NCBI GenBank assembly: GCA_964643435.1
Contig: CAZXPY010000002.1
Span: 16,794 to 73,612 of the forward strand
Length of the DNA stretch: 56,819 nucleotides
Direction of reading: 5' to 3'
Source: an uncultured Gammaproteobacteria bacterium
GTDB taxonomy: Bacteria; Patescibacteriota; Microgenomatia; Woykebacterales; RBG-16-39-9b
Within the stretch, counting starts at the first letter, position 1. Every line of letters begins with the position of its first letter. The position numbers and the translations under genes are program-made. The notes beneath the pieces were generated by a model, which was not told the DNA's origin, did no database searches, and was given only the letters and a program-made list of their open reading frames with translations. Positions 52,246 through 54,466 of this stretch are shown here, piece after piece.

Positions 52246-52906
52246 AGGCCGACAATCACATCGTTGTCCTAAAGGACACGCGTATCTTTGTCGGCCTCGT
52301 TCGGCAGAGTAGCCACACTTGAGATCTTGTCAAGAAAGACAACGTATCGTTTGTGGCTTTGGTATTCGCAACACCGATTCGTTTGTCTTCGGAAGACATA
52401 TGTGCCCTTGTCACGGGTAATTTCCGTGGTTTGGTGGGGAGGACATCCCGACAGTTGTTATTTGTAACACGTATTCAATTGTCCTCCCCACCGTTTTCTG
52501 GCGACAACCCATCTCTTGTTGGAGACCAACAAAACGACCATTGTCGCATAATCTCTATCCAGTGGGTATATTTTACCACTTCAGGCAAAAGAAAAAGGCC
52601 GACACATGAGTGATTGTCCTAAAGGACATTCTCCTCGTTGTCGGCCTCGTTCGGCAGAGTAGCCACACCTAGGACTTTGTCTGATTGGACATAGGACGTT
52701 TTGTGGCTTCTCTCACCCTAACAGCGACACCGTCCACATTGTCTCAAAGAGACAAACGATTCATTGTCGCTGGTTGGTTTTTTAAGTTGGTGGGGGGACA
52801 AACAGTAATTTGTCGTCCACGACAGACCTCCTTTTGTCCTCCCCACCGTTTGGTCTGGCGACATGTTAGTAATTGTAGAGGTTTCTACAGCCCCAACGTT
52901 GTCGCC
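52246..52906 (-). ncRNA. Stem-loop dual-guide array (TIGR-like), 10 units downstream of the Tas-like gene
   Basis: Each unit is outer stem-ACAA-N9-TGT-inner hairpin-ACAA-N9-TGT-outer stem. Units at 52246-52297, 52311-52358, 52367-52415, 52433-52492, 52501-52547, 52596-52647, 52661-52708, 52722-52772, 52789-52847, 52857-52906. Confidence 0.9.
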
Positions 52907-52910
52907 TTTG

Positions 52911-54131
52911 TTACGTCACCTCCGAAAGCCAGGGTGCTCTGCCGGAAGGCTCGATAACCTCCGGGATTTTGCCGCCCTCCAGAAACGTGTGCCACCACCA
53001 GTGCACCGCGTTGAGGAACTTCTCCCCTACGTAGCGCATCGTCATCTGGTTGATGTGGCGAGGGCTGTACAAGGGCAAGCCCCTACGCTCCCGTTTGAAA
53101 GTGTGGCCGTCTCTCTTCTCCTCGTAAGGGTTGGGCATCGCCTCCCACTCGGAGAAGGGGATGACGCGGCGTCTCTTGGCGATCACCCGACCACGCTCGT
53201 TAGTTTCCGTCTCCTCTACCTCCCAGGCTTTTTCGGAGAACTTGCTGGCAAGGTAGGTCTTACGGGCTTCGTACAGGTCTCGCCAGCCGGAGAAACCGCT
53301 CTTGCGGATCACCACTCCAAACTGGGTGAAGTACCAGACCGCCACTTGCAGGTTCGGCTGATAAGTGAGCCTGGTTCCGGCTCGGCGCAGTCGGACACTG
53401 CTCACCCCGTTGTACACAGCGTAGCCAGCGTAGGCGCGCAGTCTCTCCGAGTGATCCTTGGGAAAGCGGCGGATGTCGCCGATCTCGCCGATCACAAGCC
53501 CCGCCGTCACCGGACCGCAGCCACGGATGCGGCGGAAAACCTGCTCGTAGACCGGCAGCTCCTTGACCGCCTTTTCGATCTCCGCGTGAAGCTGCTTCTC
53601 CCGCAGCAAACACCCTTGGTAGCTTGGGTCATCGGCTAGCCGCTGTTTGCGGAAGGCTTCGAAGCTCATCTCCGGCTGCTCCAGGAGAAAGACCTCGCGA
53701 GCCGCCGCCTCTATCCGGCGCTCAACGCTGCCGCGAACTTCACGTTGGTAGTGGAGATATTCGCGGGTGTTGACTCGCAGTCGCAGGACCGGCATTTCCT
53801 CCTGACGAAGCGGCCAGAAGGAATCTGGTTCTTCCCGGGCCATCCTCGCCAAGACTTGGGCGGTGAAACTCTTCGCGTTCTCGCCCCGGGCTTCTTTGGC
53901 AAGATGAGTAGGCAGCCGAAACACAGCTGCTCCGCGGGTGGCGGCACCGAGGCAGAAGTAATCGGCCCCAGACCCCATCTCTACCCAGAGGGTGTCGGCA
54001 GTGGTGAGGCCTCCGAGGAAGCGGATCTTCGCGTCCTCATCAGTGAGGACAAATTCCTTGCCTTCCTTTCCGTCCTCGAAAGGAAGCACCCGCGTCTCCT
54101 TGCGGATCCCGTAGTCGACGGCGTAATTCAT
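52911..54131 (-). CDS. IS110/Nop-domain RNA-guided protein (TIGR-Tas, TasR-like) with degenerate RuvC-like domain
   Basis: YAVDYG (D) and WVEMG (E), coiled coil, IRGCGPVTAGLVIGEIGDIRRFP...LRAYAGY, and HI..M.MRY..KFL..VHWWW; no IS110 QSG serine loop; SD GAAGGAG. Confidence 0.85.
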   Translation of the reverse strand: MNYAVDYGIRKETRVLPFEDGKEGKEFVLTDEDAKIRFLGGLTTADTLWVEMGSGADYFCLGAATRGAAVFRLPTHLAKEARGENAKSFTAQVLARMAREEPDSFWPLRQEEMPVLRLRVNTREYLHYQREVRGSVERRIEAAAREVFLLEQPEMSFEAFRKQRLADDPSYQGCLLREKQLHAEIEKAVKELPVYEQVFRRIRGCGPVTAGLVIGEIGDIRRFPKDHSERLRAYAGYAVYNGVSSVRLRRAGTRLTYQPNLQVAVWYFTQFGVVIRKSGFSGWRDLYEARKTYLASKFSEKAWEVEETETNERGRVIAKRRRVIPFSEWEAMPNPYEEKRDGHTFKRERRGLPLYSPRHINQMTMRYVGEKFLNAVHWWWHTFLEGGKIPEVIEPSGRAPWLSEVT

Positions 54132-54204
54132 GATTCTCTCCTTCTTTTGTCCTGTTAGGACATGTTAAGGTGCTTGTCCAAACCTTGGACAGATCTTGCC
54201 GGTT

Positions 54205-54466
54205 TTGGGACATCCAGAGTATTGTGGTAGAACCACAAACGCATAGTTGTCCCAATTACCCCGTTTGTATTTTCACGCCTTGTTGCGACAGTACTTATAT
54301 TGTCCAAGAGGACAAACGTCAACTTGTCGCATTCAGGCGGTAAGAAAGTTAGTTGGGGACATCAGGCATCTTGTCCAGATGGACAATTACTCCATTGTCC
54401 CCAAACTATTGGCTAAAGCGACAACTGAATCTTTGTCTGAGCAGACACGCTCGCTTTTGTCGCTTT
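54205..54466 (-). ncRNA. Stem-loop dual-guide array, 4 units in the 5' leader
   Basis: Same ACAA-N9-TGT architecture at 54205-54255, 54284-54331, 54351-54407, 54415-54466. Confidence 0.9.

Follow-up and report, generated by a model that had tools for sequence, protein, structure and literature searches.

We analysed a 56,819-base stretch of DNA (the window in what follows) in which hairpin units with paired short spacers lie on both sides of a gene for a TasR protein, the arrangement that an array of tandem interspaced guide RNAs (TIGR) has. The array consists of 4 + 10 hairpin units around a tasR gene of 406 aa, and the locus belongs to the known stem-loop TIGR-TasR systems of the Candidate Phyla Radiation (CPR) clade. 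The reading that we favour, and consider probable on balance, is that of a stem-loop TIGR-Tas locus in the chromosome of a CPR-type bacterium, in which a TasR with a most likely dead nuclease acts as a roadblock on mostly foreign targets and a minority of the guides are directed at a Shine-Dalgarno (SD) sequence plus start codon.

Organization of the locus

Read on the plus strand, each unit has the form outer stem, ACA-N9-TTGT, loop, ACA-N9-TTGT, outer stem, and the units occupy 52240-52910 and 54200-54470. A search of the whole 56.8-kb window with the regular expression ACA-N9-TTGT-loop-ACA-N9-TTGT returned the 14 units and one artefact of cross-unit overlap, confined to 52252-52902 and 54210-54460. 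A finder that used base-pairing geometry only recovered 13 of the 14, with no match elsewhere on the array strand. The initial annotation of this DNA had placed the feature at 52596-54331, an interval that contains seven of the 14 units; five units at 52247-52549 and two at 54354-54465 fall outside it.

All elements described here are on the minus strand. A candidate promoter (TTGACA-17-TAGAAT, 11/12 match, 54478-54506) lies directly upstream of unit 1 and, by alignment, is kept in the sister lineage represented by contig L080. Unit 1 (54416-54465) carries spacers AAGCGAGCG and AGATTCAGT, with the predicted target AAGCGAGCGACTGAATCT; unit 2 (54354-54403) carries TGGAGTAAT and GATGCCTGA, with target TGGAGTAATTCAGGCATC; and unit 3 (54283-54332) carries GTTGACGTT and TATAAGTAC, with target GTTGACGTTGTACTTATA, the one described earlier as '-35-like', which has no match in IMG/VR. 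Unit 4 (54205-54255; CTATGCGTT and TACTCTGGA) is missing from L080. Reading of the sequence shows two orphan inner-hairpin elements of the form TGTCC-loop-GGACAA (54140-54204) in the interval from unit 4 to tasR, both kept in L080. The second of these runs straight into the SD of tasR (GGACAA followed directly by AAGAAGGAG), and this SD occupies the spacer position after box C. The tasR gene itself extends over 52911-54131.

The units downstream of tasR are unit 5 (52856-52907; spacers CGTTGGGGC and TTACTAACA), unit 6 (52793-52842; AAGGAGGTC and ATTACTGTT), whose target AAGGAGGTCAACAGTAAT holds a full SD and has AT at its end, unit 7 (52722-52772; TGAATCGTT and TGTGGACGG), unit 8 (52660-52709; AACGTCCTA and AGTCCTAGG) and unit 9 (52597-52646; CGAGGAGAA and TCACTCATG; target CGAGGAGAACATGAGTGA), which has a GGCCGAC stem followed by a T-run at 52587-52596. 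Unit 10 (52499-52549; TGGTCGTTT and GAGATGGGT), unit 11 (52438-52487; TTGAATACG and CTGTCGGGA), with an outer stem of 12 bp, unit 12 (52366-52416; GGGCACATA and ACGAATCGG), unit 13 (52310-52359; ACGATACGT and GATCTCAAG) and the last, unit 14 (52247-52296; AGATACGCG and CGATGTGAT), again with a GGCCGAC stem, complete the array. Past this last GC-rich hairpin, inspection by eye finds a T-rich run (52227-52246) that is absent from the list of a simple terminator scan; the transcript likely ends there.

The downstream array is a duplicated 5-unit block (52240-52596 and 52590-52910, with a period of about 350 bp). The two blocks have near-identical scaffolds and linkers and different spacers, and each ends in a GGCCGAC hairpin and a T-run. 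L080 has an equal two-block layout, and its units 3 and 8 still carry one common spacer pair. Open reading frames (ORFs) overlapping the array in the window lie at 52353-52613, 52685-52957 and 54247-54522. In sister loci, public gene calls place an ORF of 221-240 aa, with no Pfam match, on the opposite strand over the downstream array (L080 11118-11783, L083 5144-5866 and corresponding places in the remaining sister loci); an ORF called across the TIGR array in these relatives is almost certainly spurious.

The TasR protein

TasR has a RuvC-like N-terminal domain, a coiled coil and a Nop-type C-terminal domain, the last with a beta-rich insertion at about residues 300-355. Its sole Pfam match is Transposase_20. 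Among NCBIfam models, TIGR_Tas_endo (E = 8.5e-23) comes ahead of transpos_IS110 (9.6e-14), and a profile of 25 family members reaches TaTasR (PDB 9MTY) at 6e-38, as compared with 3.6e-5 for TasH and 1.4e-4 for IS621. An AlphaFold (AF2) model of the protein has a mean predicted local distance difference test (pLDDT) score of 88, and its best Foldseek match is again 9MTY (E = 3e-13), with IS621 next. TasR is homologous to known Tas proteins and has their Nop-type RNA-binding domain. An IS621-like catalytic serine was considered and rejected, the region aligned to the IS621 Ser not being conserved in the TasR family.

In the profile alignment, K87 and T90 stand opposite the Asp pair of the TaTasR motif 'KNDENDS', in a column that is variable across the family. 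On this alignment, half of the RuvC acidic tetrad is replaced and the other half, D6 and E51, is kept. Because K87 and T90 replace this Asp pair, the nuclease is probably, though not certainly, inactive. The initial annotation, which speaks of a dead nuclease, is probably right on this point. This agrees with the published CPR clade of TasR proteins, in which RuvC is inactive, the gene lies between stem arrays and the spacers are separated by hairpin loops (Xu et al. 2026, 10.64898/2026.09.09.750476; Faure et al. 2025, PMC12045711).

Structure of the array RNA and geometry of its targets

The gene order cysS, tasR, DUF5667 protein is common to three lineages, namely the window and two sister lineages found on metagenome contigs. 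TasR is 92% identical to that of the window in the first (L080-L085, L087) and 80-83% identical in the second (L088 and L089). The arrays compared were those at 52247-52907 and 54205-54465 in the window, L080 9723-11890, and those of L088 and L089.

Alignment of 35 units from the three lineages showed that CAA and UG are invariant in both halves of the unit. A two-helix structure pairs 93.5% of the alignment cells and is backed by double changes in 7 of 11 base pairs (5 of 7 in the outer helix, 2 of 4 in the inner). None of 500 shuffles reached the observed level of covariation, and no slid register came near it. Folding of single units gave z of about -3 to -6. The outer stems are variable yet consistently palindromic. 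A box C/D small RNA or small nucleolar ribonucleoprotein (snoRNP) was rejected as an identity for these elements, as the boxes are CAA and UG and there are no kink-turn C (RUGAUGA) and D (CUGA) boxes; no Rfam family reached its gathering score on the array RNA, and no fibrillarin or L7Ae partner gene was found near the locus among the ORFs of the window and its relatives. CRISPR-Cas was likewise rejected, there being no long identical repeats in the array and no cas-like ORFs in the flanks.

The array is predicted to be transcribed from the minus strand, because of the conserved promoter, the T-runs that follow the block-terminal GGCCGAC hairpins on that strand, and its shared orientation with tasR. 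Read in this direction, the 3-nt box C is CAA and UG is box D, in agreement with published systems. Published work on TIGR systems reported 8-nt 3' overhangs, a 'C-5' rule and a spacer A/B swap that leaves the system functional (Faure et al. 2025). Because of these three properties, a target made of spacer A plus the reverse complement of spacer B is the sole geometry that fits, and the 18-bp targets given here are predictions derived from these published TIGR rules. The same geometry and strand had been assumed in the initial annotation and agree with the published rule, the promoter, the T-runs and the orientation of tasR. The 14 reconstructed 18-mers listed there were reproduced letter for letter as the reverse complement of plus-strand spacer B followed by plus-strand spacer A.

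Ribosome-site likeness of the guides

Several of the reconstructed targets had been said to resemble ribosome-binding sites (RBSs) or promoter elements. The promoter part of this proposal does not hold: with both strands counted, a set of 14 18-mers should contain about 0.4 copies of TTGAC, and for this reason the '-35' reading of TTGACG is at chance level. The RBS part is partly supported. The target AAGGAGGTCAACAGTAAT contains a full AAGGAGG, and all of its exact copies in viral contigs continue with a G that gives an ATG and an ORF. The second candidate, CGAGGAGAACATGAGTGA, is weak as an RBS, with an SD-to-ATG spacing of 3 nt and a single viral match whose ATG is not an ORF start. From the window alone, the occurrence of AGGAGG in at least one of its 28 spacers has P ~0.04 given the genomic 9-mer frequency, a marginal value.

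The motif recurs in the sister arrays. In the 92%-identity lineage, AAGGAGG is present in a spacer A, AAAGGAGGT, and in a spacer B, GAAAGGAGG. Among the 70 distinct spacers of the three lineages, AAGGAGG occurs three times in RNA sense and never in antisense. The P value of this frequency is 1e-4 when each spacer is shuffled internally, 5e-6 when all genomic 9-mers serve as the null and 1.3e-3 when the genomic 9-mers are matched for composition; taken over the choice of null model, it is put at about 1e-4 to 1e-2. Considering only the 42 spacers that are new to this analysis, two were observed where about 0.02 were expected. Two of the three SD-type targets also have AT at positions 17-18, their end. 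The SD signal in this clade is real but small, a minority feature of about 3 in 35 units, and its generality beyond the clade is not supported.

Spacer turnover in sister lineages

Comparison of the window (52215-52910 and 54132-54525) with L080 (11222-11960 and 9652-10000) showed that scaffolds are orthologous stem by stem and spacers differ; a single unit is shared, and this only by the two sister lineages with each other. When the window is compared with the 92% lineage, tasR is 90% identical at the nucleotide level, the scaffold columns of the arrays are 82-83% identical, and 4-fold-degenerate sites of the genes for TasR, the DUF5667 protein and a DUF1003 protein are 67-77% identical. The spacer columns are only 36% identical in the downstream array and 13% in the upstream array, against a random expectation of about 27%. 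Within one lineage, arrays are identical across 6-7 samples but for one single-nucleotide polymorphism (SNP).

Spacers diverge faster than neutral sites while the scaffold around them is retained. Given that turnover exceeds that of synonymous sites and the scaffold is kept, active renewal or strong diversifying selection is indicated. Turnover at this rate also argues against conserved gene starts of host or self as the main targets, and for foreign or fast-changing DNA. In the upstream array of L080 (9790-9850) there is a decaying unit with a mutated box C, GGGGATAA in place of GGGGACAA; this unit, together with unit 4 of the window and its missing counterpart in L080, suggests that units are gained, lost or eroded singly.

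Proposed mechanism and evidence against it

In the reading that we favour, a single minus-strand transcript would start at the conserved sigma-70-like promoter and carry four guide units, tasR and 10 further units. Each unit would be read as a variable outer stem, CAA, a 9-nt spacer A, UG, a short inner hairpin, CAA, a 9-nt spacer B, UG and the other side of the outer stem. Processed units (tigRNAs) would be loaded into a TasR dimer, where spacer A would recognize one DNA strand and spacer B the other, together specifying an 18-bp site. Because K87 and T90 replace the second Asp pair of TaTasR, and in spite of the kept D6 and E51, TasR would most likely bind without cutting and form a roadblock to transcription or replication. 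Its main targets would probably be foreign or fast-changing DNA, such as that of phage and other mobile elements, because renewal of the spacers far outpaces change at neutral sites. A minority of guides, in this clade about one unit in 12, would be aimed at SD-plus-start regions.

The notion of programmable silencing through a dead nuclease, put forward in the initial annotation, agrees with a September 2026 preprint in which dead CPR TasR proteins repress transcription in Escherichia coli (Xu et al. 2026). Its more specific form, silencing at gene starts, is partly supported: SD-like spacers recur, whereas no gene start of self or host was matched at <=3 mismatches in the predicted contiguous geometry, in the window or in flanks of relatives, and database matches were not enriched beyond chance.

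Several results weigh against our reading, beginning with the protein and the motif. The TIGR_Tas_endo score of TasR, 81 bits, is under the curated cut-off of 100, and the intact D6 and E51 leave room for residual nuclease activity. The SD motif was chosen partly after inspection of the data. In four distant arrays (L165, L174, L175 and L176; 67 spacers, with other box motifs), AGGAGG does not occur, and there is only one GGAGG and two AGGAG, all in sense. These distant arrays were curated by hand, as a relaxed structure finder gave too many false positives in unrelated loci.

The target searches, which found no natural target, add further points of this kind. The search for the 18-mers that had been proposed as a check was run on the window, on the flanks of relatives and on IMG/VR, and yielded no enrichment beyond chance. 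For self-targets, the window was searched for the 14 targets in four half-geometries, allowing gaps of 0-2 and at most 4 mismatches. No site with <=3 mismatches was found in the predicted contiguous geometry, the counts were those of chance in all four half-geometries, so that the alternative half orders performed no differently, and gapped 3-mismatch matches were at chance as well. The RBS of tasR itself gave no match as a target at <=4 mismatches. Window and sister targets were also searched for in the flanks of each other's loci: the 21 kb of flanks from relatives held no site with <=3 mismatches in the predicted contiguous geometry, and the matches obtained, at 3 mismatches, were those of chance.

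Exact scans of IMG/VR with seven predicted targets and one half-swapped control returned matches in 0-2 independent families per 18-mer, the expected chance rate. Of these, AAGGAGGTCAACAGTAAT was found in four contigs of two families, always with G as the next base, where a portal gene ends in a TAATG stop/start junction; CGAGGAGAACATGAGTGA in one contig; GAAAGGAGGACGGATTAT at two RBSs within one contig; and AAGCGAGCGACTGAATCT once, inside an ORF. Three other targets and the half-swapped control had no exact match in IMG/VR. Matches that bear an SD land on RBSs by construction. The portal genes of the two matched families are non-homologous by BLASTP, yet both end in ...GGQQ followed by the stop, and for one of the portals the closest relatives among reference sequences are human faecal phages. 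A second target from the window has a 3-mismatch match 78 nt into the portal gene of L169 (10208), which is weak (P ~0.14 per locus). We rejected the IMG/VR matches as identified targets on account of the chance rate, the non-homologous portals and the human-gut relatives. The match shows that AAGGAGGTCAACAGTAAT is a genuine natural RBS-plus-start arrangement in viral DNA, and no target is thereby identified. At the four viral loci L168 2301-2319, L169 12327-12345, L170 10645-10663 and L171 4353-4371, the stop/start junction past the portal gene is the 19-mer AAGGAGGTCAACAGTAATG.

Alternative explanations

The SD-like spacers may be a by-product of a preference for G-rich, C-poor guides in their selection or acquisition, for example because purine-rich 9-bp RNA:DNA hybrids are stable, in which case the targets could lie anywhere in foreign DNA and AAGGAGG would appear as the commonest purine-rich word of real genomes. 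We regard this as a tenable explanation, if a less probable one. Over all 70 spacers, G makes up 31% of the bases in RNA sense and C 15%, in a genome of 41.6% GC, and this G-rich, C-poor composition is equally marked in both spacer positions, A and B, and in each of the three lineages; as a consequence, the left half of a target is G-rich and the right half C-rich. Matching for composition lifts the expected number of AGGAGG from 0.09 to 0.46. The absence of AGGAGG from the distant arrays fits this explanation, as do the non-SD targets with IMG/VR matches, which sit within ORFs or away from start codons. Against it, the three AAGGAGG spacers remain in excess of composition-matched 9-mers at the P value given above, each of them is oriented in sense, and two of their three targets have the terminal AT. 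The stronger proposal, in which part of the guides would be dedicated to the SD-plus-start-codon DNA of phage or host genes, a form of CRISPR interference (CRISPRi) at gene starts in which spacers are swapped by an unknown mechanism and the scaffold is left untouched, is rather doubtful in our estimate.

A house-keeping regulator, acting in the manner of CRISPRi on the bacterium's own gene starts, is unlikely. The chromosomal, syntenic position of the locus in three lineages (cysS - tasR - DUF5667), the arrays that stay identical across 6-7 samples of one lineage at one SNP apart, and the SD-like character of some guides would all suit such a role. Against it, no match with <=3 mismatches in the predicted contiguous geometry exists in the 56.8 kb searched from the same genome, and identity between orthologous spacers is about random where synonymous sites are 67-77% identical; conserved host targets would have preserved the spacers.

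Pairing with RNA is a further alternative, which we consider very unlikely. In this case the AAGGAGG spacers would pair with the anti-SD tail of 16S rRNA, and a Nop-domain protein with a dead RuvC would act on RNA as a box C/D ribonucleoprotein does. The spacers AAAGGAGGT and GAAAGGAGG are perfect complements of ACCUCCUUUC, which we take to be the usual 3' tail of bacterial 16S rRNA, a general tail and not that of the host's own 16S. G-U pairs would be possible with G-rich guides, and the clade has been speculated to be intermediate towards snoRNPs (Faure et al. 2025). However, TaTasR is without activity on RNA (Faure et al. 2025), CsTasR was solved on double-stranded DNA and represses DNA targets (Xu et al. 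2026), the explanation fits only 3 of 70 spacers, the locus has no methyltransferase partner, and neither kink-turn C/D boxes nor a snoRNA-like Rfam family was found. As a tandem DNA target, 16S rDNA was rejected too, since a match to the usual 16S 3' end would be confined to one half.

An IS110-family insertion sequence with bridge-RNA-like structures, or hairpins that are protein-coding or repetitive extragenic palindromic (REP)-like repeats, would explain the lone Transposase_20 match, the transpos_IS110 match at 9.6e-14 and the 221-aa ORF called over the array in relatives, but is extremely improbable given that the locus is single-copy in the window and fixed in one synteny in three lineages, that the profile is far nearer TasR than IS621 and the family does not conserve the region aligned to the IS621 serine, that there are 14 dual-spacer units instead of one two-loop bridge RNA, that covariation backs RNA stems, and that the array-covering ORFs lack Pfam matches.

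Relation to known systems

The closest known systems are the CsTasR-type stem-loop TIGR systems of CPR bacteria (Candidatus Staskawiczbacteria; Xu et al. 2026; Faure et al. 2025). Shared features are a RuvC-like domain that lacks, here by alignment, the full acidic tetrad, arrays that flank the gene, palindromic outer stems of variable sequence, a short hairpin that separates the spacers, an insertion in the Nop domain and, as predicted here, 9-bp pairing per spacer to give an 18-bp target. In contrast to CsTasR, which has 547 aa and R8 and V126 at the first two catalytic positions, the TasR described here has 406 aa and keeps D6 and E51, and its box C is CAA where CUU or CCA has been reported.

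The dual-repeat TaTasR system (PDB 9MTY) is the best match in sequence and fold and shares the tandem-spacer geometry of A plus the reverse complement of B and the UG box D. Unlike the locus in the window, with its stand-alone hairpins, variable stems and probably inactive nuclease, that system has an active nuclease, and its tigRNAs, of 36 nt, are cut out of edge and loop repeats that are conserved. IS110/IS621 bridge-RNA recombinases share the Nop-type RNA-binding domain (Transposase_20) and the split-guide logic, whereas the present system has no conserved catalytic serine, no donor loop and many guide units, and is not mobile. Nuclease-free CRISPR interference (type IV, V-M and dCas9 CRISPRi) resembles it in RNA-guided DNA binding, as proposed here, and in silencing without cutting, and is most effective near gene starts. 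The protein here is unrelated to those of CRISPR, there is no protospacer-adjacent motif, two 9-nt guides would read opposite strands, and no adaptation genes are known.

The natural targets of TIGR-Tas systems and the acquisition of their spacers are stated open questions (Faure et al. 2025; Xu et al. 2026). Neither of these papers mentions SD-like spacers, a 2:1 G:C bias or faster-than-neutral turnover, and a search of a literature library found no paper joining 'tigRNA' with 'Shine-Dalgarno'. With orthologous scaffolds, unrelated spacers, guides of strand-specific G-rich composition and recurring RBS-like guides, the window and the two sister lineages that share its synteny amount to a small natural experiment. 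If the RBS preference is true in larger catalogues, it would indicate where these repressors act in nature and suggests an assay with the target placed at an RBS; if it fails, the composition bias and the rate of turnover still constrain models of spacer origin.

The distant array on L176 (7771-8470 and 9552-10050; TasR P0009) has about 15 units with box C CUA/CUG in short groups. Each group apparently has its own TTGACA-type promoter and T-run, as opposed to the single-promoter layout of the window. A scan of genome contigs returned mostly Firmicutes IS110 transposases. Beside IS110 transposase genes, a loose hairpin finder flagged CGATCACCTCCT, which resembles the 3' end of 16S rRNA, at L023 70-110, L032 6479-6520 and L046 8367-8410 (Alicyclobacillus).

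Neighbouring genes

The locus is flanked by cysS (54526-56034) and by the gene for a 1599-aa surface-type protein (47414-52213). The latter protein is of a secreted or surface type, with DUF5667 in sister loci. Its C-terminal third has many repeated Cys motifs, CP.GYHWM..GGWCM and GSCG.GYYWNG.SC, and its gene contains a PPPSTT tandem repeat at 52046-52096. The cysteinyl-tRNA synthetase encoded by cysS has 502 aa in the window as compared with 449-466 aa in the sister lineage, and the 4-fold sites of cysS are only 44% identical as against 67-77% for neighbouring genes; cysS may be unusually diverged or replaced.

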